From Burkholderiales bacterium (lineage in GTDB: Bacteria > Pseudomonadota > Gammaproteobacteria > Burkholderiales > SG8-41): DNA of 64,000 nucleotides. Below the pieces are notes generated by a model that was given only the letters and a program-made list of their open reading frames with translations, ran no database searches and was not told where the DNA came from. Positions 5,341 to 64,000 of the stretch are shown here, piece by piece. The position numbers and the translations under genes are program-made. The stretch spans positions 12,621-76,620 of the forward strand of contig JAIENU010000083.1 in assembly GCA_019751125.1 (NCBI GenBank), given 5' to 3'. The stretch's first letter is position 1. Each line of letters starts with the position of its first letter.

Positions 5341-7458
5341 ATGACCCGCCGCATCCTCGTCACCTCTGCCCTGCCGTATGCCAACGGCGCCATCCACCTC
5401 GGACACCTGGTGGAGTACATCCAGACCGACATCTGGGTGCGTTTCCAGCGCATGCAGGGCCATGAAGTCCACTACGTCGGGGCCGACGACACCCACGGCA
5501 CGCCGATCATGCTGCGCGCCGACAGTGAAGGCATCACGCCGGAGCAGCTGATCGAGCGCGTGTGGAAGGAACACGACCGCGACTTCAGGAGCTTCAGCGT
5601 CGGGTTCGACAATTTCTACACCACCAACTCGCCGGAAAACGAAGCGCTGTGCTCGGAGATCTACGGCAAGCTCAAGGCCGCCGGGCTGATCGCCACGCGC
5701 TCGGTCGAGCAGTTCTACGACCCGGTGAAGCAGATGTTCCTGCCCGACCGCTATATCAAGGGCGAATGCCCGAAATGCGGCGCGAAGGACCAGTACGGCG
5801 ACTCCTGCGAAGTCTGCGGCGCCACCTACTCGCCGATTGAACTGAAGAACCCCTACTCCACGGTCTCCGGCGCCAAGCCCGAACGCCGGCAGTCCGAGCA
5901 CTACTTCTTCAAGCTCTCCGATCCGCGCTGCGAAGCCTTTCTGCGCGAATTCACCCAAAGCGGCGAGCGCCTGCAATCCGAAGCCGCCAACAAGATGAAG
6001 GAATGGCTGGGTGCCGAAGGTGAAGGCAAACTCTCCGACTGGGACATCTCGCGCGACGCGCCGTACTTCGGCTTTGCGATTCCCGGCACCGACGGCAAGA
6101 AATTCTTCTACGTCTGGCTGGATGCGCCGGTGGGTTACTTCGGCAGCTTCCTGAATTACGTCAAAAAACAGCAGGCCGCCGGCAAGACCATCAACGCCGA
6201 CGACTTCCTGAAAAGTGACAACACCGAGCTGGTGCATTTCATCGGCAAGGACATCCTCTACTTCCACGCGCTGTTCTGGCCGGCCATGCTCAAACATGCC
6301 GGCTACCGCACACCGTCGAAGATCTACGCCCACGGATTCCTCACCGTGAACGGCGAAAAGATGTCCAAGTCGCGCGGCACCTTCATCACCGCCGAAAGCT
6401 ACACCCAGCAGGGCCTGAATCCGGAATGGCTGCGCTACTACTACGCCGCCAAGCTGAACTCGACGATGGAGGACATCGACCTCAATCTTGAGGACTTTGT
6501 GGCGCGGGTGAACAGTGATCTGGTGGGTAAATATATAAACATCGCGAGCCGTTGCGCGGGATTTATTACCCGAAATGGCGGAAATATCGTACTCCACAAC
6601 AAATATTTTAACTACGGCGCAACCGATCGGGGATTAAACCCCGAATATTTGCCAGGCGCGTTTTCAGCAAAAGCTAGCGCCATACAAATGCTTTATAACC
6701 GGCGAGAATTTGGTAAAGCCATGAGAGAAATCATGGCTCTTGCTGATGAAGCAAATCAATTTGTAGCAGAAACAAAACCGTGGGAACTCGCAAAACTACC
6801 AGAGCGCAAAGAACAGTTAATCGAGGTCTGCTCTGTAGCTTTAAATTTGTTCCGGAGCTTGACGATTTACCTCAAACCGGTTCTTCCAGAAACCGCAAAA
6901 AAAGTTGAGGGCCTATTGGGAATCCCCTCTATGCGATGGGTGGATGTCCATAAACCCTTGCACAACCATCCTATTGGCGAATACAAGCACCTGATGACCC
7001 GCGTCGACCCCAAACAAATCGAAGCCCTCGTCGCTGCGAACAGGGAAAGCCTCAAACCCGCAGCGCCTGCCGCCAAGCCCGCAGCCGCCAAAGCCCCGGA
7101 GAACAAAGTGGAAACCGTGACCGAACCCGCACACATCTCGATCGACGATTTCTCGAAGATCGACCTGCGCATCGCGCGCATCGCCAATGCCGAACATGTC
7201 GAAGGCGCGGACAAGCTGCTGAAGCTGACGCTGGACGTCGGCGCGCTGGGTACCAAACAGGTCTTCGCCGGCATCAAGTCGGCCTACGACCCGGCGACGC
7301 TGGTCGGCCGGCTGACGGTGATGGTCGCCAATCTCGCGCCGCGCAAGATGAAGTTCGGCATGTCCGAGGGCATGGTGCTCGCCGCCAGCGGCGACGCGCC
7401 GGGGCTCTACATCCTGTCGCCCGACTCCGGCGCGCAGCCGGGGATGCGCGTCAAATAA
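5341..7458 (+). CDS. metG: Methionyl-tRNA synthetase with C-terminal Trbp111/EMAPII-like tRNA-binding domain
   Basis: The HIGH motif is '[14 protein letters not shown]' and the KMSKS motif is 'GEKMSKSRG'. Zinc knuckles read '[18 protein letters not shown]'. The C-terminal OB-fold tail begins '[32 protein letters not shown]'. Confidence 0.97.
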
Positions 7459-7479
7459 GCCGGATTTCACGGCAGCGCC

Positions 7480-8499
7480 ATGAGCGCCACCCGCAACTTC
7501 ATCTGCAGCATCGTCTTCATCGACGTCGTCGAGTTCTCGAAGAAGTCGGTGGCAGACCAGATGCGGATCAAGGACGAGCTCAACCGGCTGCTGGCGCAGG
7601 CACTGAAGGATGTGCCGACCAAGGACCGCATCATCCTCGACACCGGTGACGGCGCGGCGGTGAGTTTTCTCGGCGACCCCGAGGAAGGCCTCTATCTGGG
7701 CCTCGCGCTGCGCGACGCGGTTGCCGCCGGCTCGGCACTCAGGCTGCGCACCGGCATCAATCTCGGCCCGGTGCGGCTGGTCAAGGACATCAACAACCAG
7801 CCCAACATCATCGGTGACGGCATCAATGTCGCGCAGCGTGTGATGAGTTTTGCCGAAACCGGCCAGGTGCTGGTGTCGCGCTCCTACTACGAGGTGGTTT
7901 CGGCACTGTCGTCGGATTACGCGAAGCTGTTCAGCTACGGCGGTCCGCGCACCGACAAGCATGTGCGCGAACACGAGGTCTATGTGCTGGGCGATCTGCC
8001 CACGCCGCAGCGCGCGCCGCGTGAAAAATCCGCGCATGCCGCGGCCTTCGAAAAACTCGGCAACACCGCCTCGACCGCGCGCCACGGCGTGATGCGCCGG
8101 CCCAAGCTGGCGACGGCGCTGACCGTGATCCTGATCCTGCTGGTCGCGGTATGGATACGGCTGACCTTCCGCGAGGACGCCGGGCTCGACCTGATCACGG
8201 AATCACCACAGGCTGAAACCCAGTACACCGCGCCGCCCAAGGCAAAACCCGCGCGAAAAGCCGAAGCCCCACAACCTGAACCGGCCACCACCACCGGCAC
8301 GGTGCGCCTGAACGTGCTGCCCTGGGGCGAGATCTACATCGACGGCCGCAAATTCGGCGTCTCCCCGCCGTTGCGCGATATCGCGCTGAAGCCCGGCCAG
8401 CACCGCATCGAAATCCGCAATCCGGGCTTTGCCTCCTATGTGCAGCTGGTCGAGGTCCGGGCCGGCGAAGAGATTAGAATCCGGCATCGCTTTCAATAA
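7480..8499 (+). CDS. Membrane-anchored class III nucleotidyl-cyclase-homology protein with C-terminal PEGA-like domain
   Basis: The N-terminal part is cyclase-like: 'FIDVVEFS', 'DTGDGAAVSF' and 'GINLGPVRLV..IIGDGINVAQRVMSFA'. One TM helix ('LATALTVILILLVAVWIRL') follows. The C-terminal beta domain, 'GTVRLNVLPWGEIYIDGRKFGVSP..IALKPGQHRIEIRNPGF', is typical of PEGA. Confidence 0.6.
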   Translation: MSATRNFICSIVFIDVVEFSKKSVADQMRIKDELNRLLAQALKDVPTKDRIILDTGDGAAVSFLGDPEEGLYLGLALRDAVAAGSALRLRTGINLGPVRLVKDINNQPNIIGDGINVAQRVMSFAETGQVLVSRSYYEVVSALSSDYAKLFSYGGPRTDKHVREHEVYVLGDLPTPQRAPREKSAHAAAFEKLGNTASTARHGVMRRPKLATALTVILILLVAVWIRLTFREDAGLDLITESPQAETQYTAPPKAKPARKAEAPQPEPATTTGTVRLNVLPWGEIYIDGRKFGVSPPLRDIALKPGQHRIEIRNPGFASYVQLVEVRAGEEIRIRHRFQ

Positions 8500-8507
8500 G
8501 GGCCGCC

Positions 8508-8933
8508 ATGCGCAAGCTCGCCATCATGCTGATGCTGCTGCCGCTGCTGACCGGTTGCGAAACCGTGCAAAAAGGCATGAAGAACGTCACCGACGCGCTC
8601 GATTTCGACAAGCAGCGCGACAAGGCGCAGGAAAACCAGCTGGCGATCGCCGAGGCGCGGCTGAAGGCCGGCATCGCCCAGTACGAACAGGGCAATTACG
8701 CGCAGGCCCAGCGCACATTGCAGTCGGCGCTGGTCAACGGCCTCAGCCAGCGCAGCGACCAGGCACGCGCCTACAAATACCTCGCCTTCATTTATTGCGC
8801 CACCGATCGCATCCCGCAGTGCCGCCAGGAATTCGGCAACGCACTGACCGCTGATCCCGGATTCAACCTGACGCCGGCCGAAGCCGGACATCCGACCTGG
8901 GGGCCGGTGTTCCGCAGCGTGCGCGGACGCTGA
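8508..8933 (+). CDS. Small lipoprotein with TPR-like helical region
   Basis: The lipobox is 'LLPLLTGC'. The helical repeat-like core is 'AGIAQYEQGNYAQAQRTLQSAL..ARAYKYLAFIYCATDR'. The conserved-looking C-terminus is 'PAEAGHPTWGPVFRSV'. The gene lies 8 nt after the cyclase/PEGA gene. Confidence 0.6.
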   Translation: MRKLAIMLMLLPLLTGCETVQKGMKNVTDALDFDKQRDKAQENQLAIAEARLKAGIAQYEQGNYAQAQRTLQSALVNGLSQRSDQARAYKYLAFIYCATDRIPQCRQEFGNALTADPGFNLTPAEAGHPTWGPVFRSVRGR

Positions 8934-8939
8934 ACACGG

Positions 8940-10169
8940 ATGAGTGAGCCGCAGCAGATCGGCCGCTACAACGTCGTTGGTGAAATCGGCCGCGGCGCGA
9001 TGGGTGTGGTCTACCGCGCCATCGACCCGATGCTCGAGCGCACGGTCGCGATCAAGACCATCAACATGGCGCTTGATCCGGGCGAAATGGAGCATTACGA
9101 AAAGCGCTTCATGATCGAGGCGCGCGCCGCCGGCGGGCTGAACCACCCGAACATCGTCACCATCCACGACATCGGCCGCAGCGGCGACCTCGCCTACATG
9201 GCGATGGAGTTTCTCGAGGGCCGCGAGCTGAAGTCGCTGATCGCCGGCGGCGAAGTGACGCCGGACCGCGCGCTCGAGATTGCGGCGCAGGTCGCCGACG
9301 GGCTCGCCTACGCCCACCGCCACGAGGTTGTCCACCGCGACATCAAGCCGGCCAACATCATGATCCTCGGTGACGGCCGGGTGAAAATCACCGACTTCGG
9401 CATCGCGCGCATGCGCAGCGCCGACGTGCGCACCCAGACCGGCGTGGTCCTCGGCTCACCGCGCTACCTGTCGCCGGAACAGGTGCTGGGCAAACGCTGC
9501 GATACCCGTGCCGACACCTTCTCGCTGGGCGTCATCCTCTACGAAATGCTCACCGGCCAGGCGCCGTTCAACGGCGTCGACGTCAATTCGCTGATGTACC
9601 AGATCGTCAATTTCACGCCGCCGCCACCGAGTTCGGTCAATCCGGCGCTGCCGCCGATGATCGACCTGATCATCGCCAAGGCCCTCGCCAAGTCGGCCGA
9701 CGGGCGTTACGCCGATATCGCTGAACTGGCCGCCGACCTGCGCCATTGCCGGCTGGCCGGCGTGCCGGCAGCCAAAGCACCGGCGGCAACCGACAAGCCG
9801 CACATGACCGCGACGGCTGCGCCGGATCCTTTCGCCGACACGCTGCCGGCCTCGCGCAGCGACGACGATGCCCGCACCATTCCCAACGAATTGCCGGCAC
9901 GCGGACTCGCCAAGGATTTCGATTCGACGGTGGCAACAATGCGGCTCGCCGCGCAGACCGGCGCGATCACCGATCCCGATGCCTTTGCCAAAACCCTGGG
10001 CATCAGCCGCCACGCCATCGATGCCCTGATCGTCGAAGCGGACACCGTGCCGATCACCCCGAAACCCGCCGTCAGCCAGGCCGCACCGTGGTCTACGCTG
10101 GACCGCCGCATTTTTGCCATCGCCACGGCCGCCGCCTTTGCCGCCGGCGCGGTCATCGTTTTTATCTGA
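8940..10169 (+). CDS. Hanks-type Ser/Thr protein kinase, C-terminally tail-anchored
   Basis: The ATP-binding loop and lysine are 'GEIGRGAMGVVY' and 'VAIK'. The catalytic loop is 'HRDIKPANIMI', the DFG motif 'ITDFGIA', and the APE-like motif 'YLSPEQ'. A single TM helix sits at the extreme C-terminus ('IFAIATAAAFAAGAVIVFI'), leaving no extracytoplasmic domain. Confidence 0.9.
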   Translation: MSEPQQIGRYNVVGEIGRGAMGVVYRAIDPMLERTVAIKTINMALDPGEMEHYEKRFMIEARAAGGLNHPNIVTIHDIGRSGDLAYMAMEFLEGRELKSLIAGGEVTPDRALEIAAQVADGLAYAHRHEVVHRDIKPANIMILGDGRVKITDFGIARMRSADVRTQTGVVLGSPRYLSPEQVLGKRCDTRADTFSLGVILYEMLTGQAPFNGVDVNSLMYQIVNFTPPPPSSVNPALPPMIDLIIAKALAKSADGRYADIAELAADLRHCRLAGVPAAKAPAATDKPHMTATAAPDPFADTLPASRSDDDARTIPNELPARGLAKDFDSTVATMRLAAQTGAITDPDAFAKTLGISRHAIDALIVEADTVPITPKPAVSQAAPWSTLDRRIFAIATAAAFAAGAVIVFI

Positions 10170-49306: not shown

Positions 49307-50286
49307 ATGAACAAACAAAACAAGCGTCTGGTACTCGGATTGATCGGCCTTGCCGCGGCTGTCTGCTCCGGCGTCGCTGCCGCCCAGGCGCAAAACTGGC
49401 CCAACCGCGCCATCCGTGTCATCAATCCCTTTGCTGCGGGTGGCGGCACCGATGCCTTTGCGCGCCCGCTCGCTGCGCGGCTCAACACCGAACTCGGCCA
49501 GCAGGTGCTGATCGAAAACATTGGCGGCGCCGGCGGCACACTGGGTGCAGGCACCGCATCACGCGCACCCGGTGACGGTTACACCTGGTTCATGGGCGCG
49601 GTGCACCACACCATCGCCGAAACGCTGTACCGCAAACTTGCCTACAGCCTCGAGCGCGACTTCCATCCGGTGACTGTCGCCGCCTACGTGCCGAGCCTGG
49701 TCGTGGTGCATCCCTCGATTCCCGCGAAAACGGTGAAGGAACTGATCGCGCTGGAAAAACGTTCACCGGGCAAGATCAACTTCGGCTCCGCCGGCGTCGG
49801 CACCACGCACCACATGAACGGTGAACTGTTCAACGTGTTGACCGGCACAAAACTCAACCACATCCCGTTCAAGGGCGCAGGCCCGCTGACCCCGGCCCTG
49901 CTCTCGGGCGAAGTCGACATGGCCTTCGACGGCATGGGCACCGCAGTACCCAATGTGCGTTCCGGTCGCCTGCGCGCCATCGCCGTAACGCCAAACGCGC
50001 CGAGCTGATGCCCGAAGTGCCGACGCTGATGGAATCCGGCATCAACATGGATGTCACCACTTGGTACGGCCTCTGGGCAATCAAGGGTACGCCGCGGCCG
50101 ATCATCGACCGCATGTACCAGGCCACGGTCAAGACCATGGCACTGCCGGAAGTCAAAAAGATCTGGGATTCACTCGGCGCCGCCCCCGGCGGACAAAGCC
50201 CCGCCGAATTCGAGAAGTTCATCAAGCAGGAAATTGCCACCTGGGCCAAGGTGGTGAAAGCTTCCGGTGTCAAAGTCGAAAACTGA
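49307..50286 (+). pseudogene. Bug-family solute receptor gene interrupted by a -1 frameshift (or a sequencing error)
   Basis: ORF 49307-50008 (233 aa, Bug N-terminus) and ORF 50008-50286 (92 aa, Bug C-terminus) are adjacent in different frames. Frame 1 ends '..LRAIAVTPNAPS*'. The second frame read back from 50008 gives 'KRAELMPEVPTLMESGI', matching '..TTAKRSPQIPEY..' and '..TTKKRIPSLPYVPTL..' in the intact paralogs. Adding one base near 49990-49996 (run 'ccaaacgc') restores a receptor of about 325 aa. Confidence 0.7.
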
Positions 50287-54876: not shown

Positions 54877-55087
54877 CGCAAAACCTTTCTCGACCGGAAC
54901 GGGTCAAAGTAGTGAAGGAGCGGCGGATTCGCGCACACGCAATGGCGCAATGTGGAACCGCACGCAATCAAACACCCGGAGAATAAATCACGCCAACTGT
55001 CAAGGCCAGCGGCAACGCGCAAGCACCACCAAACATCCGCAGAACGAACAAAAAAATCAGCAGCTTGCATGACCCGCAAAAATCCAC

Positions 55088-55115
55088 TTGCATGGTTCTG
55101 GCGGCGGCGCATACT
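55088..55115 (+). promoter_or_regulatory. Weak sigma70-like promoter candidate for nrdJ (-35 TTGCAT, 16-nt spacer, -10 CATACT)
   Basis: The hexamers were found by eye about 70 nt upstream of ATG 55183. This is speculative. Confidence 0.2.
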
Positions 55116-55182
55116 GCGCACCCAATACCCGTTATGCAGCGTGGCCAAATGCCGCGCCGCCACCCAACAAAGGCGCAGCCAC

Positions 55183-58071
55183 ATGAACGAATCGGTCCTC
55201 GGCAAAGACGTCACCCTCACCGAGCAGGAAATCAGCCGCGACACCCTCATCGAGAAATATGCCAAGGGCAACGAAAGCAGCATCGGCGACGTGCGCCGCC
55301 GCGTCGCCCGCGCCCTGGCCAAGGTCGAGGCCGAAGACCAGCGCGCATTGTGGGAAAAACGCTTCCTGCAGGCCCAGGAGGAAGGTTTCATCCCCGCCGG
55401 CCGCATCAATTCCGCCGCCGGCGTCGAACTCGCCGCGACACTGATCAACTGCTTCGTGCAGCCGGTGGGTGATTCGATCTCGGAAGTGGTCGACGGCAAG
55501 CCCGGCATCTACATCGCGCTGCAGGAAGCCGCCGAAACCATGCGCCGTGGTGGCGGCGTCGGCTACGACTTCTCGGCAATCCGGCCCAAGGGTGCAGAGG
55601 TCAAGGGCACCCAGTCCAACGCCAGCGGCCCGGTTTCCTACATGCGCGTGTTCGACCGCTCCTGTGAAACCGTGGAATCAGCCGGCTCGCGCCGCGGCGC
55701 GCAGATGGGCGTGCTGCGCTGCGACCACCCCGATGTCGAGGAATTCATCCACGCCAAGGACAAGGGCGACCTGACCAACTTCAACATCTCGGTTGGTGTC
55801 ACCGATGCCTTCATGGAAGCGGTGGAAAAGGACTGGGAAGTCGAACTGGTGCATAAATCTCGCCCCAATGCGCGGCAAATGGCCAAGGGCTCCTACCAGC
55901 GCGAAGACGGCCTGTGGGTCTATACCAAGGTGCGTGCCCGCGAGCTGTGGGACCAGATCATGCGCTCGACCTATGACCACGCGGAGCCGGGCATCCTGTT
56001 CATCGACCGGATGAATACCGACAACAACCTCAATTACTGCGAAAAGATCGAGGCCACCAATCCCTGCGCCGAACAGCCGCTGCCGCCCTACGGCTGCTGC
56101 TGCCTGGGCTCGGTTGACCTGACGCGCTTCGTGCGCAACCCCTTCGCCGAGAATGCCGGCTTCGATTTCGACCGCTTCGCCAAGGTGGTCGCAGTGGCGA
56201 TCCGCATGCTCGACAACGTGCTCGACGTCACCGCCTGGCCGCTGCCGCAGCAGAAGCAGGAAGCGGCCAACAAGCGCCGCGTCGGCCTCGGCTTCACCGG
56301 TCTCGGTGATGCGCTGGTGATGCTGCGCCTGCGCTACGACACGCCGGAAGCACGGCAGATGGCGGCGAAGATTTCGGAAGCAATGCGCGATGCTTCCTAC
56401 CGCGCCTCCAGCGACCTCGCCAAAGAAAAAGGCGCCTTCCCGCTGTTCAACGCCGACCTCTATCTGTCGGGCAGCAGCTTCGCCACGCGCCTGCCAGAAG
56501 ACATCAAGCAGCTGATCCGCAAGCAGGGCCTGCGCAACAGCCACCTGCTGTCGATTGCACCCACCGGCACGATCAGCCTGTCGTTTGCAGACAATGCCTC
56601 CAACGGCATCGAACCGCCCTTCTCCTGGACCTACACCCGCAAGAAACGCATGCCCGACAACACCATGCGCGAATTCGCGGTGGAAGACCACGCCTGGCGG
56701 CGCTGGAAGGCCGAGGGCGGCAACACCGAGAAACTGCCGCCGTGGTTTGTCACCGCGCTGGAGATTTCCGCCGGCGCGCATGAGGAAATGGTTGCCGCAG
56801 TCGCGCCGTATGTGGATACCAGCATCTCCAAGACCGTCAACGTGCCCGAAGATTATCCCTACACCGACTTCCAGGACCTTTATTTCAAGGCCTGGAAATC
56901 CGGACTGAAAGGGCTGGCCACCTACCGCCCGAACAGCGTGCTGGGTTCGGTACTGTCGGTGGAACCGACGGCCAAGGAAAAAGAGAAAAAAGCGCCGCAG
57001 GATTTCCGAGCCGACGACGTCAATCGCCGCATCCAGATCCAGTCGCTGCCGGCCCCGGTGCTGGCGAGCCTGCGCTGGCCCGGCCGGCCGTCGATGACCG
57101 CCGGCAATCCGGCCTGGACCTACATGATCGACCACCCGCACGGCACCTTCGCAGTGTTTGTCGGCCACGTCGAGAACGAGCACAACCACGCCTTTGAAGT
57201 GTGGGTCAACGGCAGCGAGCAGCCGCGCGGCCTCGGCGCGGTGGCCAAGACGCTGTCGATGGACATGCGCGCCGACGATCCGGGCTGGCTCAAGCTGAAA
57301 CTCGACACGCTGGCCAAGGCCGCCGGCGACGAACCCTTCGACATGCCCTTCCCGCCGCACGGCGAGATCAAGCGCATGCCCTCAGTGGTCGCCGCCTTCG
57401 CGCAGGTGCTGCGCTGGCGTGTTGACGAACTCGGCGGCCTCACCGCCCCGGGGGATCGCCTGTTCGACCAGTCGCCGACACCCGTGCTGGATGCGATGTT
57501 TGCGCCCAAGGAACCGAAGACCGGCACCGACGGCACGATGTCGTGGACCGTCGATGTGCTGAACCCGCGCACCGGCGACGACTTCGTGCTCGGCATCAAG
57601 GAAATCACGCTGCCCGGTGACGGCAGCAATGCCGGTGTCACCCGCCCGTACTCGATGTGGCTGTCCGGCGAATATCCGCGCGCCCTCGACGGCCTGTGCA
57701 AGTTGCTGTCGCTGGACATGCGGGTAATGGACCCGGCGTGGATCGGCATGAAACTGAAAAAACTGCTCGAGTTCCCGGAACCGCTGGGCGACTTCATGGC
57801 CTTCGTGCCCGGTGAACGCCGCCAGGCGACCTTCCCGTCCACGGTCGCGTACGTCGCAAGCCTGATCCTGCACCGCTACACCATGCTCGGCATCCTCGAC
57901 GTCAACGGCGCGCCGCTGACGCAGATGGGCATCCTCGCCACGCCGGAACGCAGCATCGAACCCAAGGTGATGAAAGGTTCACGCTGTCCCGAATGCGGCA
58001 ACACCACGCTGATCCGCAAGGACGGCTGCGACTGGTGCTCGGCCTGCGGCTACACCGGGACCTGCGGCTGA
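55183..58071 (+). CDS. nrdJ: Class II (adenosylcobalamin-dependent) ribonucleotide reductase
   Basis: 962 aa from ATG 55183. Matching regions are 'RINSAAG', 'LINCFV', '[20 protein letters not shown]' and '[10 protein letters not shown]'. The C-terminal tail is Cys-rich: '[28 protein letters not shown]'. The track ORF from 54952 is over-extended. Confidence 0.93.
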
Positions 58072-58091
58072 GGTTTCGGTTCGCCACCAAC

Positions 58092-58124
58092 AAAACGGCC
58101 GGGAATTTTCCCGGCCGTTTTTTT
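58092..58124. terminator. Intrinsic terminator shared by convergent nrdJ and the TPS-like operon
   Basis: A 13-bp stem, aaaacggccggga/tcccggccgtttt, carries a 4-nt loop. It is followed by a T7 run on the plus strand; the minus strand has only TTTT. Confidence 0.7.
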
Positions 58125-58145: not shown

Positions 58146-58715
58146 TCAGTGCTGGCTGCCAGGCTGGCGGTACTCGCTGTAAACCCAGTAACCGAGCAGC
58201 CCCCGCCGCATGCGGAATTCGACTCGCGCGCCAGCGCCGCCGTAATCCGTACCTGAAAGCCCGATACAACAGCGGCCGTCATGGATGAAAGCCGTCTCGC
58301 TGAGTCCGAAGCGGCCCGATTCACGATGCACAGCCTTGACCTGCAGCACCCGCCACTGCCAGGCCCCCGCGGGTATCCAGCGGTTCACGGCATAGGCCAG
58401 CACGATGGCGGTGAAGCCGGCAACCAGCGCGGCCTGCAGCGCATAGAACAGGGCGTTGCGCGTATCGAACAGCAGCGGGCGGCGCTCCGTCACCGACTCG
58501 TCACGCAGCACCGCAGAAAGCGCCAGGACAAATCCCGCAACGGCGCCGACCAGCAGCGGCGTGGTCATCATCTGTCCGGCGCTGAAGGTGTTGCCATGCG
58601 GCACGAATACGCAGCCCGCCAGCGACAGTACGGCCAGCAGCGCGTACGGCCGTTCGCGCAACAGGCGCTTGATCAGCGCGGCATCAATATTCTGGAATTC
58701 AATGCCCTGGTTCAT
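58146..58715 (-). CDS. Hypothetical 3-TM membrane protein (last gene of the TPS-like operon)
   Basis: 189 aa, with a GGGAGGG ribosome-binding site 3-4 nt before the ATG. Three hydrophobic segments are present: 'YALLAVLSLAGCVFV', 'LLVGAVAGFVLALSAVL' and 'ALFYALQAALVAGFTAIVLAYAV'. A soluble tail of about 70 aa follows. No family was recognised. Confidence 0.55.
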   Translation of the reverse strand: MNQGIEFQNIDAALIKRLLRERPYALLAVLSLAGCVFVPHGNTFSAGQMMTTPLLVGAVAGFVLALSAVLRDESVTERRPLLFDTRNALFYALQAALVAGFTAIVLAYAVNRWIPAGAWQWRVLQVKAVHRESGRFGLSETAFIHDGRCCIGLSGTDYGGAGARVEFRMRRGLLGYWVYSEYRQPGSQH

Positions 58716-58739
58716 GACCCTCCCATGGCCGTCCCCCCT

Positions 58740-59789
58740 TCAGTATCCAATCCGGCCGCGGCTGAAACGTACGGCCAGCGCACCCAGTATCACCAGCGTT
58801 CCAAACGTCATCCACACCGCGAAACCCAGACCCTCCACCCGGAAGGTGTACATGATCATCGCGATCATCATGAACAGACAGAACAGCACGATGCTGACCC
58901 TCACCCCTTTCTGGTAACTCCGCTCATTGCGCCTCTGGTCGTAGTGGTCCGCGACGAAAAGCAGGCAAAACATCACCGCGCTCAGCAGCGCCGCCGCCAT
59001 TACCCAGGCTTCGGCGCCAATAAAGGTGATGGCCATGCTCTGGCCCGGCGCAAACTTGTTGATGAACGGAAAATACATCTGGCCTGTCCACAGGCAGTAG
59101 CCGGAATAGGCCACGAAGAACAGCGACAGCAGGATATTGATGACCCGCGTGTGCAGCGGCACTACATTCGGCGTGTAGTGAGCCGGGTTGATCGAACCGT
59201 AGGCCTCGTATTCCTTTCTCGCTTCGGCCAGGCTCAGGCCGAAATTGCGGCCCGGCACCACCTTGTCCGGCTGATATTCGCTCTGGCCATGATAATCGCG
59301 CCAGCCGCAGAGCTTGCATTCCTCGCCGGCACCACGCTGCGTCAACCCTTCCCAGCCACAGCAGGGACAGGGCATCCTGCCCGACGCTGGCTGGTTTTCT
59401 TCAGGATTGGCCGGCATCGACATCGCCTCCAGCGCCGGCACCAGCTCGGGATGCGCCGCACTCAATGGCTCCTGATCATCTTCGAAGACCCGCAACTCCG
59501 CTGCGCTTTCACGGTAGCCCATGGCATGGGCTTTCTCCGCGTCGGTCATCCGCCGCTGCCGTGTCTCGATGCCCACCTTCGACAGCAGCCCGGCCAAGCG
59601 CTTCGCCTCGCCGGCATCAAGGCCGATGCGCAGCAACTGCCAGCCGCCCTTGAGCCACAGGTCGGCCTGCGCCGCAGGCACCTGCAATTCGCGCTGCAGC
59701 AGCGCCGACGCGGCTTCGCGGGTCAGACCGGCACGCAGCTTGCCACTGATCAGCAGCATGAAACGGTCACTCAGCCACGGTGCACTCAT
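58740..59789 (-). CDS. CPCC-type zinc-ribbon + 4TM membrane protein, paralog A (with extra N-terminal domain)
   Basis: ATG 59789 is preceded by GGAGG 5 nt upstream; the track's GTG 59795 is 2 codons longer. The zinc ribbon is 'CPCCGWEGLTQRGAGEECKLCGWRD'. Other family features are 'GRNFGLSLAEA', four hydrophobic segments and the loop 'DHYDQRRNERSY'. The protein ends in Tyr. Confidence 0.7.
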   Translation of the reverse strand: MSAPWLSDRFMLLISGKLRAGLTREAASALLQRELQVPAAQADLWLKGGWQLLRIGLDAGEAKRLAGLLSKVGIETRQRRMTDAEKAHAMGYRESAAELRVFEDDQEPLSAAHPELVPALEAMSMPANPEENQPASGRMPCPCCGWEGLTQRGAGEECKLCGWRDYHGQSEYQPDKVVPGRNFGLSLAEARKEYEAYGSINPAHYTPNVVPLHTRVINILLSLFFVAYSGYCLWTGQMYFPFINKFAPGQSMAITFIGAEAWVMAAALLSAVMFCLLFVADHYDQRRNERSYQKGVRVSIVLFCLFMMIAMIMYTFRVEGLGFAVWMTFGTLVILGALAVRFSRGRIGY

Positions 59790-59840
59790 CACCACCTCCG
59801 GATAGCAGTCATTCTGCGGATATCACATAAGTAATTGTTT

Positions 59841-60740
59841 TTAATAACTATTTTTTGATCTCTTATAGACCACCACTGCCATCACCAGCAGGATCAGCCC
59901 CACCACCAGCAACACCGCCAGCACGCGCCAGTCACTGCCTGAATCCAGATACACATACGCGCCCAGCCACAGCACCAAGCACACCCACATCAGCATCTGG
60001 CACAGCTGCGCGATTTTTTCGTAGAGCGCCTCGTTGTTGCGTTTGTCGTAATGGTCAATGACCTGCACAGAAAACTGCAGCACACCAAACACCAGCGCCC
60101 CTGAAACCAGCCAGGCCTCAACACCGTGCAGCGTAAAACTCGATATGCCGCTGGATTGAGAACGGCTGATGTTGGGCAGAAACAATGCATCGCGCCACAA
60201 GCTGTAGCCGCAGTAGACCAGCACCAGCAAAGTCACCAGCGTTTCGGTGATGCGCTTTTTCAGCGGCAGCACATTGGGTACGTAACTGAGCGGCTCCAGC
60301 GTGCCCCGTTCAGCGAATTGTTGTTGCGCCTGCGCGAGGCTGTAGCCCCGGTTGCGGCCCGGAACCACCAGATCGGGACAGGACTCGTTCTGTTCAGCAT
60401 CGTCACGCCAGCCGCAGACCCGGCACAACTCGCCGGCACCACGCTGTTTCAGGGAACGCTTGCGGCAACAGGGGCAATCAATCACAGCACCGGCGATTGC
60501 CAGCTCGGCGCGCATCTCCACGCCAGCATCACGCAGCGCCCGCACATAACGCCCCATGGCCGCATGTTCAAGCCCGCCTTTGATGGTCTGCTCACGCCCC
60601 GACAACAGTTCCAGCGCCTTTGCCTCGGATATCCGCATCAGTTTCGCCAATGCAGCCGCCACCGCCTCGCGTTTGTGACCGTGCAGGATGCGACCGGTCA
60701 GCAGCAGGTCGTATTTTTCAACGGGCCTGGTCATGGGCAA
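59841..60740 (-). CDS. CPCC-type zinc-ribbon + 4TM membrane protein, paralog B (with extra N-terminal domain)
   Basis: The zinc ribbon is 'CPCCRKRSLKQRGAGELCRVCGWRD'. Other family features are 'GRNRGYSLAQA', four TM segments and the loop 'DHYDKRNNEALY'. The protein ends in Tyr. The start is TTG 60740 or ATG 60734. Confidence 0.7.
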   Translation of the reverse strand: MPMTRPVEKYDLLLTGRILHGHKREAVAAALAKLMRISEAKALELLSGREQTIKGGLEHAAMGRYVRALRDAGVEMRAELAIAGAVIDCPCCRKRSLKQRGAGELCRVCGWRDDAEQNESCPDLVVPGRNRGYSLAQAQQQFAERGTLEPLSYVPNVLPLKKRITETLVTLLVLVYCGYSLWRDALFLPNISRSQSSGISSFTLHGVEAWLVSGALVFGVLQFSVQVIDHYDKRNNEALYEKIAQLCQMLMWVCLVLWLGAYVYLDSGSDWRVLAVLLVVGLILLVMAVVVYKRSKNSY

Positions 60741-60749
60741 TATCGGCGA

Positions 60750-61394
60750 TCAGTATTCAATTTTCTGCGACCTGACATTGGTGATGATCCCGAACAGGAT
60801 CAGCAGCGCCATGAAACCCACCGCCAGCGCCAGCCATCCGCCACCGTAACGGTAGGCGGCAGCCACCATCGCCAGCCCCATGAACAAGCCCATCAGCACA
60901 AAACTGGCTTGCACCGCCCGCTGATAGACATGCTCGTTGCGACGTCGGTCATGGTGATCAACGATGGCCAGCACGCCGTACATCGCCCCCGACAACAGCG
61001 CCGCCGCCATCAGCCACAGCTCCACGCCCTCCAACTGGACAGGCCGCCGGTTGCCGCTGCCACCCGGCAGGATCATGGTGCCGAGCCACAGGCTGAAACC
61101 GCAGTAGGCGATCACCAGTGCAGCGATCACGCCGCTGAACACCCGACGCCCCAGCGGCACATGGTTGGGGATGTAGTCACCGGGCCGGATCGAACCATAG
61201 TGCTGATGGACCTTGCTCGCCGCGTTCAGGCTCAGGCCGTGGTTGCGCCCATCAATCACCTGATCGGCGTTTTGTTCATTCTGTTCAGGGTCATCACGCC
61301 AGCGGCAGCGCCGGCATTCATCGCCGGCACCGCGCCGCGACAAAGTCTTGTTGCCGCAGCAGGGACAGGACAGAAGTTCCGGCTGTTGCGTCAT
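60750..61394 (-). CDS. CPCC-type zinc-ribbon + 4TM membrane protein, paralog C (minimal form)
   Basis: 214 aa from ATG 61394; the track ORF from 61535 overlaps the tpsB gene and is over-extended. The zinc ribbon is 'CPCCGNKTLSRRGAGDECRRCRWRD'. Other family features are 'GRNHGLSLNAA', four TM segments and the loop 'DHHDRRRNEHVY'. The protein ends in Tyr. Confidence 0.7.
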   Translation of the reverse strand: MTQQPELLSCPCCGNKTLSRRGAGDECRRCRWRDDPEQNEQNADQVIDGRNHGLSLNAASKVHQHYGSIRPGDYIPNHVPLGRRVFSGVIAALVIAYCGFSLWLGTMILPGGSGNRRPVQLEGVELWLMAAALLSGAMYGVLAIVDHHDRRRNEHVYQRAVQASFVLMGLFMGLAMVAAAYRYGGGWLALAVGFMALLILFGIITNVRSQKIEY

Positions 61395-61423
61395 GGGATA
61401 ACCCCCGGGACGGTGATGCCGAT

Positions 61424-63001
61424 CTAGTAACGGAATGCCAAGGAAGCGTGTACGCGGTTGTCGCCCTTGTTGCTGGTGCCGGCGCCGTTCAACACCTGTG
61501 CCCAGTCGAGGGTTGCGCTGAAATTGCGCCGCCACTGCCAGCGCAGGCCGGCGCCGATGCCCGTCGCACTTTCGCGCGCCTGGGTGCCCGCGGCCGCCTG
61601 ATGGTTGCGCACCTGGCCGGCGTCGGTGAACAGCACTGCGCGCAGGCCGTCGGCGAGCAGCGGCGTGGTGAATTCCAGCGTGCCGAGCAGGCCCTGGTCG
61701 CCGGTGCCTTCTCGCTCTTCAAAACCGCGCACACCAGCCGAACCGCCGAGGCCGAACTGCTCGCCGGGAATCAGCGCATCGTTTGACACCTGTCCGCGCA
61801 TCTTCGCGGTGGCAATCCAGCCGCCCAGCGCCTTCGACCCTTCAAAGCCATAACGCCAGGCCTGCCAGTCCTTGCCGGCACCGGCGCGGTTGGCGGCGTA
61901 CGCGGCATCGGTATTGCTGCTGCCACCGCCAAGGTTGTGCGCGAACTCGAGGTTGCCGCGCAGGCCGTAATCGGCACCATCGAGCCGCCCGGTGTAGCGC
62001 AGCAGCAACGGCTGGCTGCGCACATCGGTGCCGATTGCCACGTTGTTGAACAGCACGTTGCTGCCAAAAAACCGGTTTTCGATGCCGAACTCCGCAGCAT
62101 GACTGTAACTGCCGAAGGGAAGCAGGCGATGTGTCCAGCGCAGGCCGTAGAACTCGCCGCTGCCGCTGACATTGAAAAAATTGGCGACCACGCCGGAGTT
62201 GCTGTCGGACTTGGTGTAGTAGCCGGACAGTGCGCCGTTCCAGGCATAGACCGGCGCGCGATAATAAATGCCGTACTGCTGCACGTCCTGACGATGGCCG
62301 TCGGGCGAGGTGGTGTAAGTCGCCGTCACCGAATGATCACGGTCAAACAGGTTGCTGTGCGACATCCCGATCCCCAGCCGCGTATGGCCCGACTGCTTGG
62401 TGCCGGTGTTGTCGAGGCTGGCGAAGAACTGCAGCGGCGCGGCATCGTCCACCTTCACCGCCGCATCCACGGTATCCGGCGTACGGCCCTGCTGGATGGT
62501 CACCGCGACCTGCTTCGAGGGATGGTCGTTGGCCAGCGCCTGCGCACGCGCAATCTCGCGCAAATTGGGCGTGACGCCACTCGCCAGTGCCGGCAGGCTG
62601 CGGCGGATGTTGTCGGTGCTGAAGGCCTTGTTGCCGCTGACATTGACGTTGTTCAGCTTGAAGGCCAGCACGCGCAGCGTGATCGTGCCGCGTGCATCCT
62701 GCGGCGGGATGATCACCCGCAGAAAACCGTAGCCGCGATCCTTCAGCGCAGTTTCGAGCGCGCTGGCAGCGGCCTGCAGACGGTCGATGGTCATAGCCTC
62801 GCCGGTGTACGGCGCGAGCAGCGATTGCGTGTCGGCAACAGACAGCGGGTTGTCGCCGTCAACGCTGTAAGCCGTGACCGCGAAGCGTGTGTCCTGCGCC
62901 TGCGCCGGATGCACCAGCGCCGCCAGCAACATCAGTCCTGCCCCTGATAATTTACGTAACACTTTGTTTTTATTGATAATTTTGTTTACCTGATGCTGCA
63001 C
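61424..63001 (-). CDS. ShlB/FhaC/HecB-family two-partner-secretion outer-membrane transporter (TpsB; POTRA + 16-strand barrel type)
   Basis: 525 aa. The signal peptide is '..LMLLAALVHPAQAQD'. The POTRA region is 'FAVTAYSVDGDNPLSVADTQSLLAPYTGEAMTIDRLQAAASALETALKDRGYGFLRVIIPPQD..GTITLRVLAFKLNNVNVSGN'. Barrel motifs are 'LDNTGTKQSGHTRLG', 'GGSAGVRGFEE' and a terminal 'SLAFRY'. Confidence 0.85.
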   Translation of the reverse strand: MQHQVNKIINKNKVLRKLSGAGLMLLAALVHPAQAQDTRFAVTAYSVDGDNPLSVADTQSLLAPYTGEAMTIDRLQAAASALETALKDRGYGFLRVIIPPQDARGTITLRVLAFKLNNVNVSGNKAFSTDNIRRSLPALASGVTPNLREIARAQALANDHPSKQVAVTIQQGRTPDTVDAAVKVDDAAPLQFFASLDNTGTKQSGHTRLGIGMSHSNLFDRDHSVTATYTTSPDGHRQDVQQYGIYYRAPVYAWNGALSGYYTKSDSNSGVVANFFNVSGSGEFYGLRWTHRLLPFGSYSHAAEFGIENRFFGSNVLFNNVAIGTDVRSQPLLLRYTGRLDGADYGLRGNLEFAHNLGGGSSNTDAAYAANRAGAGKDWQAWRYGFEGSKALGGWIATAKMRGQVSNDALIPGEQFGLGGSAGVRGFEEREGTGDQGLLGTLEFTTPLLADGLRAVLFTDAGQVRNHQAAAGTQARESATGIGAGLRWQWRRNFSATLDWAQVLNGAGTSNKGDNRVHASLAFRY

Positions 63002-64000
63002 ATATTGAGTATCGCCCCGTCACCGGCCCTGAAGGTATCGATCACCGAGCCGCTGCCACTGGGCAGCGGACGCGGCGTGCCGTCAAAACGCATGAAGTTC
63101 GGCACCACATCGAGCAGACGTACACGATCCGTCACTACCGCGGCATTGCCAGCCGCGACATCCACCGACTCCTCATCCTTGGTCACGCGCACCGCGCCGT
63201 CACGGACCCAGACGTAGAGGCCTTCTTCAACGGCTTTGTCCGTGCTGCCGAATATATTGTCCGCAGCCTTGATCGTAGGCAATGTTGTCAGACCGGGCAC
63301 ACGCACCGGACTGCCGGTTGAAGCCAGCATCTCGCCTGCACGCACGCGGCCACGGCCGACGATTTCGACCTCGCCTTCGGTCACTGCCACACTGGCCGGT
63401 TTGTTGTCCGCGTTGTCGGGATAACTCACGTTGGTCTTGCCGTCGGGGGCGCGATGCGTGACCTGCACGGTACCGGGTTTATCCGGACCCAGCGAAATCA
63501 GCGGACCACCGACGGCGGGAACAGGGCCGGGAAAAACCATGGGATCAACAAACATCACGTTAAAGGTTAAGGTCGTGGTCGTACCTTCAGGTCCGGCAAT
63601 TTCGGTGCGTGTCACAGTGCCGCCGGTGGATCTGCCGCCATGGGCGGTATTGACCACACTCACCACAGTTTCCACCCAGGTGGTGATCACGCGATCACCG
63701 ACACGGGTCACCGCCGGCTCGCCGGGCAAGGTCTGCAGCATGCCCGGCGGAAGAACGGTATCAGGCGCCCCCACAACGGCGATCAGGCCACCGGTAATAT
63801 CGTAGGAACGCACTGAATCGGCGGTGTCTTTCAGCTTGGCTTCGGCCGCACGACCGGCCGCTTCCGCGTCGGCGCGCACCTTGGCGTCAACCTCCGCTTT
63901 CGCGTCCACCAGTTTGTCGTCGACGGTTTTGGCTTCATTCACCGCAGCACGAACATCCTTTCTGGCCGCCCTTCGGTCTCTGTTCACCTCATCCTTGGTC
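62986..64000 (-). CDS. Partial (C-terminal 338 codons) protein upstream of the TpsB: coiled-coil segment + Thr/Val/Gly-rich beta region; candidate secreted partner
   Basis: The frame stays open to the window edge ('..TKDEVNRDRRAARKD..'), so the GTG at 63987 is probably not the true start. A coiled-coil-like stretch reads 'VDAKAEVDAKVRADAEAAGRAAEAKLKD'. The beta-rich body contains 'GTVTRTEIAGPEGTTTTLTF'. The C-terminal part, 'EGLYVWVRDGAVRVTKDEESVDVAAGNAAVV', is reminiscent of FecR-type beta domains by eye only. Its stop overlaps the tpsB start by 16 nt. Confidence 0.5.
   Translation of the reverse strand, partial: TKDEVNRDRRAARKDVRAAVNEAKTVDDKLVDAKAEVDAKVRADAEAAGRAAEAKLKDTADSVRSYDITGGLIAVVGAPDTVLPPGMLQTLPGEPAVTRVGDRVITTWVETVVSVVNTAHGGRSTGGTVTRTEIAGPEGTTTTLTFNVMFVDPMVFPGPVPAVGGPLISLGPDKPGTVQVTHRAPDGKTNVSYPDNADNKPASVAVTEGEVEIVGRGRVRAGEMLASTGSPVRVPGLTTLPTIKAADNIFGSTDKAVEEGLYVWVRDGAVRVTKDEESVDVAAGNAAVVTDRVRLLDVVPNFMRFDGTPRPLPSGSGSVIDTFRAGDGAILNMCSIR

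Follow-up and report, generated by a model that had tools for sequence, protein, structure and literature searches.

What do three tandem inner-membrane proteins, each bearing a small cysteine-rich zinc ribbon, do directly behind the gene for an outer-membrane secretion transporter? The question is raised by positions 58146-64000 of a 64,000-nt stretch of Burkholderiales contig JAIENU010000083.1 (the window), where six open reading frames (ORFs) run in the same direction on the minus strand; the flanking genes were read from identical public contigs. We find that the segment belongs to a type Vb, or two-partner secretion (TPS), operon, of which it is the 3' part, and that the ribbon of three of its products, here g3, g4 and g5, is homologous in both sequence and fold to a solved immunity protein of contact-dependent growth inhibition (CDI). 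These three genes and the small membrane-protein gene behind them, g6, form what we call the cassette, and we tentatively suggest that it may encode immunity-type proteins carried as cargo by the operon.

CPCC membrane proteins related to a CDI immunity protein

All three proteins match Pfam family PF14206 (Cys_rich_CPCC) at about 1e-12, with 44.7-47.7 bits against a cut-off of 24.5, and the cysteines of the CPCC...CxxCxW pattern are invariant in an alignment of 25 homologues. The product of g3 (60750-61394, minus strand; 214 aa; Pfam 2.8e-12) has its CPCC zinc ribbon at about residues 7-75, followed by a body of four transmembrane (TM) helices, and has no extra N-terminal domain. That of g4 (59841-60734, minus strand; 297 aa; 1.3e-12) begins with a domain resembling the C-terminal domain (CTD) of ribosomal protein L7/L12 (residues 7-78) and continues with the ribbon (about 84-150) and four TM helices (158-295), while that of g5 (58740-59789, minus strand; 349 aa; 1.1e-11) is shown by alignments to have an L7/L12-CTD-like N-domain, a linker of roughly 60 aa, the ribbon and the same four-TM body. 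The four helices are backed by hydropathy and by an AlphaFold2 model of g4, built on a 25-sequence alignment and with a mean predicted confidence score (pLDDT) of 78.6. In this model the ribbon (about residues 87-145) consists of three strands and a helix, the N-domain runs beta-alpha-alpha-beta-alpha-beta, and a short beta-hairpin (183-203) in the first periplasmic loop exposes about 20 residues to the periplasm. The membrane body is arranged as 3+1 TM helices with the motifs YxPN...IPG...DHYDxRxNE, after which we call it the DHYD body, and both the CPCC ribbon and the L7/L12-CTD-like domain are cytoplasmic. A first-pass annotation of the window, made from the letters alone, had proposed three diverged paralogues with a ribbon and four TM segments and a further small polytopic protein; Pfam, hydropathy and the AlphaFold model agree with it.

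Paralogy is visible even at the DNA level, as a 60-nt segment present in three copies that are 77-80% identical. Orthologues in related loci are 81-97% identical for g3 and 84-95% for g5, and the ratio of nonsynonymous to synonymous divergence (dN/dS) of the four small genes g3-g6 lies at 0.12-0.28 (0.16-0.26 for g3), indicating purifying selection.

The homology to an immunity protein was found both by structure and by sequence. Foldseek aligned the g4 ribbon with chain I of 8EY3/8EY4 at a target TM-score of 0.84-0.86, a root-mean-square deviation of 1.4 A and 34% identity, and hmmsearch against PDB sequences retrieved chain I of 8EY4 at E = 1.2e-9 and 8EY3 at 1e-9. The titles of these two entries describe a CDI immunity protein and a CDI toxin-immunity complex from E. 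coli O32:H37. The identical E. coli CPCC protein is encoded on 22 plasmids, 21 of them from E. coli and one from Salmonella, and on pO113 its gene begins where a 2701-aa ORF ends, at the stop codon; that ORF has Fil_haemagg_2 repeats and a PT-VENN domain, so that the two genes show the classical cdiA-cdiI arrangement. On a Ralstonia solanacearum megaplasmid (CP052127.1; L102 44-13204) a 68-aa CPCC gene lies among DUF2247 and Imm33-like genes, in an array of small genes preceded by an unlisted haemagglutinin-repeat ORF of at least 1789 aa and an IS5 element and followed by a second, short TPS pair; the whole resembles a CDI locus that has decayed and left orphan immunity genes. In Vibrio, a CPCC gene sits within a cassette array that also contains an SMI1/KNR4 gene. 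These contexts support the view that CPCC is an immunity-type module recurring beside TPS/CDI genes. Literature searches on PF14206 or CPCC with toxin or immunity, and on 8EY3/8EY4, returned nothing relevant.

Fusion of the ribbon to a membrane body is another matter. An exhaustive HMMER search of 1.84 billion representatives returned only 10 clusters at E<=1e-30, of which 8 cover both the CPCC ribbon and the TM body and the other 2 match one part; since only 8 clusters span both parts at this threshold, the CPCC-TM fusion is rare. Larger CPCC-containing proteins held no informative fused domains, NCBIfam gave no match for g3-g6, and PADLOC gave none for g3-g6 or for the FecR-domain protein described below.

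A two-partner secretion operon with a FecR-domain gene

The transporter gene, tpsB (61424-63001, minus strand), encodes a ShlB/FhaC-type Omp85 outer-membrane protein with Pfam matches to ShlB (2.7e-26), POTRA_2 (3.5e-12) and POTRA (1.9e-6), as had been supposed from the sequence at first reading. Read from GTG 63001, TpsB has 525 aa and a canonical signal peptide (MQHQVNKIINKNKVLRKLSGAGLMLLAALVHPAQA, followed by QD), and its gene overlaps the preceding one by 16 nt; read from ATG 62932, the start in the public gene call, it has 502 aa, just 13 residues of the peptide are left and the junction becomes a 53-nt gap. Because only the GTG start yields a normal signal peptide we favour this start and the 16-nt overlap, as the first-pass annotation did, although the public calls differ and the GTG-start form is absent from public records. 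TpsB orthologues in the related loci L010, L011, L012 and L014 are 59-97% identical.

The frame preceding tpsB (62986->64000, minus strand) is open to base 63999, at the window edge, and contributes the C-terminal 337 codons of a gene that continues beyond it. This had been taken for a partial exoprotein, a suggestion that we can now correct. On the identical public contig L007 the gene is complete (6522-9947) and its product of 1141 aa has an N-terminal signal/anchor directly before two FecR domains (Pfam FecR 1e-18; both stretches fall within the N-terminal third), a middle part of low-complexity and coiled-coil sequence, and a conserved beta-rich C-terminal domain. Since the full product is a FecR-domain envelope protein, the partial gene does not encode an exoprotein of the TpsA kind. 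Homologues of this protein fall into 46 clusters, nearly all annotated with a FecR domain, and a PDB profile search with the family gave coiled-coil noise only.

The true TpsA is encoded further upstream, outside the window. Its gene lies directly upstream of the fecR-like gene and specifies 2685 aa with a PF05860 TPS domain; the C-terminal 2176 residues, encoded by L007 1-6531, are tandem beta-helix repeats of roughly 195 aa that are up to about 74% identical among themselves. Across related loci the length of TpsA varies between 1341 and 2685 aa, as could result from gain and loss of repeats. The tpsA stop overlaps the fecR-like start by 10 nt, and by this overlap the fecR-like gene appears to be translationally coupled to tpsA. 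Extension of the contig thus agrees with the earlier proposal of a TPS operon whose 5' end lies outside the window, and the order tpsA, fecR-like gene, tpsB, with the same arrangement of tpsA, is kept in all related uncultured Burkholderiales loci that we retrieved. A GerE-type regulator divergently adjoins tpsA in L010 and L011, and a GerE-type or BTAD regulator is found upstream in the gene tables of L010, L011, L012 and L106. We found no description of this triad, that is, of a FecR-domain third gene in a TPS system, in the literature searched; a Burkholderia FecR/CHASE2 biofilm operon was considered as a match and rejected as a different system. The 189-aa g6 and the 502-aa TpsB are also encoded on identical public metagenome contigs (a 202-kb assembly, freshwater metagenomes), and the source is an uncultured freshwater betaproteobacterium.

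Spacing remains tight behind tpsB, with, for the start codons of the public gene calls, 29 nt to g3, 15 nt (alternatively 9) between g3 and g4, 51 nt (alternatively 45) between g4 and g5, and 24 nt to g6 (58146-58715, minus strand). The last gene is followed by an intrinsic terminator (58089-58124), for which the terminator scan gave a 13-bp stem, 8 of whose pairs are GC, closed by a loop of 4 and accompanied by a T-run, and the inverted-repeat search 17-nt arms that are 94% complementary. Because an A-run and a T-run flank the hairpin, the terminator is bidirectional and common to the operon and the convergent gene nrdJ. Six co-directional genes, their spacing and a closing hairpin had all been described in the earlier annotation, and ORFs, gaps and terminator scan bear that description out. 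Scanning the intergenic gaps revealed neither a terminator-like site nor a promoter match on the operon strand, Rfam gave no match in the window, and there are no additional CPCC, g6 or TpsB copies elsewhere in its 64 kb.

Four related loci (L010 13181-13986, L011 13792-14597, L012 12004-12809 and L106 4571-5370) have, between the fecR-like gene and tpsB, an inserted gene pair for a Phd/YefM antitoxin and a PIN toxin, which is present in neither the window nor L014.

A variable slot behind tpsB

We reached related loci through homologues of the FecR-domain protein (the 46 clusters above) and of the CPCC proteins (24 clusters). In most of them the operon occupies the same chromosomal neighbourhood, abutting nrdJ, and the slot between tpsB and nrdJ holds 0, 2, 3 or 4 CPCC genes, with or without a gene for an RDD-ankyrin protein and with or without g6. 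The window and L010 have three CPCC genes and g6, and L014/L015 have four and g6; L106 has the RDD-ankyrin gene with three CPCC genes, L107 the same gene with two, and L011 the RDD-ankyrin gene only. Nothing follows tpsB in L012, which lies in a different neighbourhood and does not end against nrdJ. The RDD-ankyrin protein, of about 645 aa, has an RDD membrane domain at its N-terminus, ankyrin repeats at its C-terminus and a proline-rich linker between them; its gene occupies L011 16206-18140, L106 6997-8949 and L107 2803-4734, and its RDD part is a weak match to the PADLOC model PD-T4-6.

Neighbour joining divides the CPCC+TM cores into at least five old paralogue clades, with 33-48% identity between clades. 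Each is retained in several genomes, with a mosaic of presence and absence, and inside clades the extra N-terminal domain has come or gone. Compared with L010 (window 58146-61394 against L010 15573-18832), synonymous divergence (dS) is 0.36-0.51 for the cassette, 0.82 for tpsB and 1.16 for the fecR-like gene; because the dS of the cassette is about half that of these two genes, cassette and core have apparently had separate histories, which suggests recombination or separate transfer. Synteny of tpsB with genes for the CPCC-4TM proteins extends to at least five lineages, and CPCC genes also occur by themselves, on contigs of Usitatibacteraceae. The adjacency of CPCC genes and tpsB is therefore real and recurrent within one lineage, and it is not obligatory for the family.

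Shared modules and g6

Two modules of these proteins recur in many others. The L7/L12-like head was recognised from the predicted fold of the N-terminal ~75 residues of g4 (target TM-score 0.74 against 1ctf in Foldseek) and, for g5, by alignment. It differs from the ribosomal CTD in being only 15-22% identical, in that Pfam Ribosomal_L12 is not matched by g4 or g5, and in heading membrane proteins instead of a stalk protein. The same head is found on further membrane proteins (P0083, P0105, P0121 and P0073), some of which have another kind of zinc ribbon beside it and end in a pilin-like part, and one of which has four tandem copies. The DHYD TM module gave 631 representative clusters at E<=1e-10 in an exhaustive HMMER search, a figure that includes CPCC-only and N-domain matches; the TM module takes most of the 150 matches listed among these clusters. 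As a body alone it makes up hundreds of proteins of 110-200 aa with the motifs YxPNxIP, IPGKR, HLHG, AW and VDHYDxRNNE, and a scan of one genome per species placed it in at least 195 species, mostly beta- and gammaproteobacteria. It has no Pfam or NCBIfam model. Members of this DHYD 3-TM family have varied N-terminal extensions, and P0078 holds two copies of the module.

The product of g6, a near-orphan membrane protein of 189 aa, has three predicted TM helices and a beta-rich C-terminal domain of roughly 70 aa that is probably periplasmic. It has no match in Pfam, NCBIfam or PADLOC, its homologues form three clusters only, its AlphaFold2 model is of low confidence (pLDDT 54), and its dN/dS is 0.12-0.18. 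One homologue, the 312-aa P0073, carries a g4/g5-type N-domain (42% identity to g4 residues 5-77 in tblastn) on a g6-like body, and by this sharing of a domain g6 is linked to g4 and g5. The shared N-domain suggests a common cytoplasmic partner.

Comparison with known systems

With FhaB/FhaC, ShlA/ShlB and PdtA/PdtB of P. aeruginosa the operon shares a TpsB in which two POTRA domains accompany a ShlB barrel, and a very large TpsA of beta-helical repeats with an N-terminal TPS domain, both encoded in one operon. It departs from them in its gene order of tpsA, FecR-domain gene and tpsB, and in the variable inner-membrane cassette that follows tpsB. To the CdiI of E. coli O32:H37 (cdiBAI) the likeness is that of the CPCC ribbon of g3-g5 and of the TPS type of both loci. 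That CdiI, in contrast, is a soluble protein of about 60 aa encoded directly after a PT-VENN CdiA, whereas the ribbon here sits on a 4-TM body, is joined in two of the paralogues to an L7/L12-like domain, and is encoded after tpsB; and unlike the exoproteins of E. coli cdiBAI and Burkholderia bcpAIOB, the TpsA here has no pre-toxin or variable toxin domain.

In the PUMA3 system of Pseudomonas aeruginosa and in other bacteria, genes for FecR-type regulators are linked to TPS genes (PMC2729926). As in FecR/VreR, with PUMA3 controlling a TPS operon, a protein with the FecR domain PF04773 is tied here to a TPS pair. The protein differs from these regulators in its length of 1141 aa, its signal/anchor start, its lack of an anti-sigma domain and its position between tpsA and tpsB, and no gene for an extracytoplasmic function (ECF) sigma factor or a TonB-dependent transducer is nearby in the gene tables of L010, L011, L012 and L106.

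The cassette also recalls the orphan immunity arrays of polymorphic toxin loci, in that diverged paralogues stand in tandem, in variable copy number and in a fixed slot. Here, however, no toxin fragments are interspersed, the head is conserved, orthologues are conserved, and the proteins are polytopic membrane proteins. Ankyrin repeats are a domain type reported among immunity proteins in the polymorphic-toxin literature, and their presence on another occupant of the slot, the RDD-ankyrin protein, is a possible further likeness. In the literature searched no described system had this gene set, in line with the earlier remark that the combination was not known to the annotator from any described secretion, toxin-immunity or signalling system. 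TPS systems, CDI immunity and the CPCC family are familiar. No report of the gene combination, of a CPCC ribbon fused to a membrane body or of the triad turned up in that literature.

What the cassette might do

We lean, with considerable reserve, towards the view that the cassette encodes membrane-tethered, immunity-type binding proteins, carried as cargo that is co-transcribed with tpsB, and regard this as possible rather than probable. The 9-53 nt gaps, without an intergenic terminator or promoter match, suggest that the cassette genes may be read through from the tps promoter. The CPCC zinc-ribbon head would be kept at the inner membrane, on its cytoplasmic side, where it could sequester a toxin domain from neighbours' TPS/CDI-type systems as that domain emerges into the cytoplasm. 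The cassette would then be protective cargo behind tpsB, and neither secretion machinery nor cognate immunity for this TpsA. If so, a soluble CDI immunity fold has been turned into a guard anchored in the membrane, TPS operons need no toxin of their own to carry variable protective cargo, and the interpretation of "toxin-less" TPS loci with downstream arrays of small genes would have to change. It is tempting to go further and speculate that the CPCC-TM paralogues, perhaps with the RDD-ankyrin protein, make up an unrecognised class of inner-membrane-anchored immunity proteins, variable cargo in an undescribed tpsA-fecR-tpsB system, but this broader proposal we hold to be rather unlikely.

Many observations weigh against an immunity function, and they weigh most heavily against its simplest form, a classical CDI or Bcp-type locus in which the toxin would reside in TpsA or the FecR-domain protein and the CPCC paralogues would serve as its cognate and orphan immunity proteins. 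Such a locus would account for a CdiI fold in the CPCC domain and for tandem diverged paralogues in a TPS locus. One would then expect a toxin, yet the C-terminal 2176 residues of TpsA, the part covered by our domain and motif searches, match no Fil_haemagg, PT-VENN, DUF637 or toxin family in Pfam, in a test that does yield Fil_haemagg_2 and PT-VENN with pO113 CdiA as positive control, and their translation contains neither a VENN nor an NxxLYN motif. The last ~165 residues of TpsA are conserved to the end (40-63% identity in L010, L011 and L012), as is the C-terminus of the FecR-domain protein, in loci with and without CPCC genes, L011 and L012 being of the latter kind; and the gene that follows tpsA is the 1141-aa FecR-domain gene and not a small immunity gene. 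We detected no homologue of the C-terminal toxin region of the E. coli O32:H37 CdiA in TpsA, the FecR-domain protein, the window or the retrieved loci, and no orphan toxin fragments between the paralogues. A classical CDI locus is largely refuted by the missing VENN motif and toxin domain and by the conserved C-termini, and we rate its chances as very slight indeed. The first-pass annotation had offered a polymorphic-toxin-like locus with membrane-embedded immunity as one of two hypotheses. Its immunity half has gained from the homology of the CPCC proteins to the CDI immunity protein that abuts the PT-VENN CdiA of pO113; its toxin half has found no support in TpsA, and the slow evolution of the head, to which we turn now, speaks against it as well.

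The CPCC head is the most conserved part of these proteins, with a dN/dS of 0.06-0.13 in the deeper orthologue comparisons, and among the paralogues it is 46-51% identical against 30-40% for the TM body. If the paralogues differed in toxin specificity one would predict the contrary. It should be kept in mind that small zinc ribbons are structurally constrained, and that where a toxin family is conserved its immunity family can be so too. Constraint of this kind, together with the purifying selection on the proteins as a whole, would also be expected if the cassette products were ordinary proteins of the inner membrane that serve the physiology of the cell in their own right, expanded in tandem in a permissive slot and linked to TPS by position only; the DHYDxRxNE loop and the zinc ribbon might then bind a metal or a cytoplasmic partner. 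This explanation is a serious one, though in our judgement still doubtful. In its favour, the TPS core exists without any CPCC gene in the sister loci L011 and L012, and on the Usitatibacteraceae contigs CPCC-TM genes that are sister to the g3 clade occur as single copies in conserved surroundings devoid of TPS genes. The L7/L12-like N-domain, common to unrelated membrane architectures, looks like an uncatalogued cytoplasmic adaptor module, generic in nature rather than devoted to immunity. The DHYD module, too, stands alone in hundreds of small proteins, and its neighbourhoods are not toxin-related: in a survey of 80 loci (L021-L100), with flanking ORFs from about 60 of them, neighbour clustering, together with a Pfam scan of 114 flanking ORFs, showed unrelated housekeeping neighbours, none of them conserved, and no enrichment of toxin or immunity genes. 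On this result we rejected the TM body as support for immunity. Against an ordinary role stand the specific homology of the CPCC head to a CDI immunity protein, the recurrence of CPCC genes near TPS/CDI genes in E. coli and Ralstonia, and a cassette position that is always tpsB-proximal, co-directional and tightly spaced in at least five lineages; copy number and membership moreover vary among otherwise syntenic genomes, which is unusual for housekeeping genes. Were the ordinary role to prove true, the outcome would be a modest annotation result. Whatever the function, the tpsA-FecR-domain-tpsB triad, the DHYDxRxNE 3-TM family and the L7/L12-CTD-like head are worth recording.

The other early hypothesis, an envelope-spanning signalling or export device, has received no positive evidence, and the CPCC genes have turned out to be dispensable for the tpsA-fecR-tpsB core. 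A zinc ribbon followed by TM helices is a common layout of anti-sigma factors and regulators. One could accordingly imagine the cassette as a secretion or signalling accessory, with the periplasmic FecR-domain protein coupling TpsA/TpsB to the inner-membrane proteins, an idea that we regard as improbable; it is similarly improbable that the cytoplasmic zinc-ribbon and L7/L12-like heads relay a signal inwards as a split cell-surface pathway of the FecR type. Such coupling would suit the FecR-domain protein as the conserved third member of the operon, overlapping tpsA by 10 nt, the divergent GerE-type regulator beside tpsA in L010 and L011, and the linkage of FecR-type regulators to TPS elsewhere (PMC2729926). 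It is difficult to reconcile with a core that manages without CPCC genes in L011 and L012, with a copy number that ranges from 0 to 4, with stand-alone CPCC copies that have neither FecR nor TPS genes nearby, and with a periplasmic exposure of the CPCC protein that the model limits to the hairpin of about 20 residues; nor does any retrieved locus contain an ECF sigma factor or a TonB-dependent transducer.

Neighbouring genes

The convergent neighbour nrdJ (54952-58071, plus strand) encodes a class II ribonucleotide reductase. It is free of inteins in the window (962 aa as publicly called), and its orthologues at L010 18903-22934 and L011 18189-22193, of about 1340 aa, contain an intein with a LAGLIDADG endonuclease domain. 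Further upstream on the plus strand, a gene of the TctC/Bug family of solute-binding proteins (49307-50286) is broken into ORFs of 233 aa and 92 aa that abut, the ATG of the second overlapping the stop of the first at 50008, and their sum corresponds to a normal TctC of about 325 aa. The split is a frameshift or nonsense pseudogene or else an assembly error, and it is present in identical form on the public 202-kb contig.

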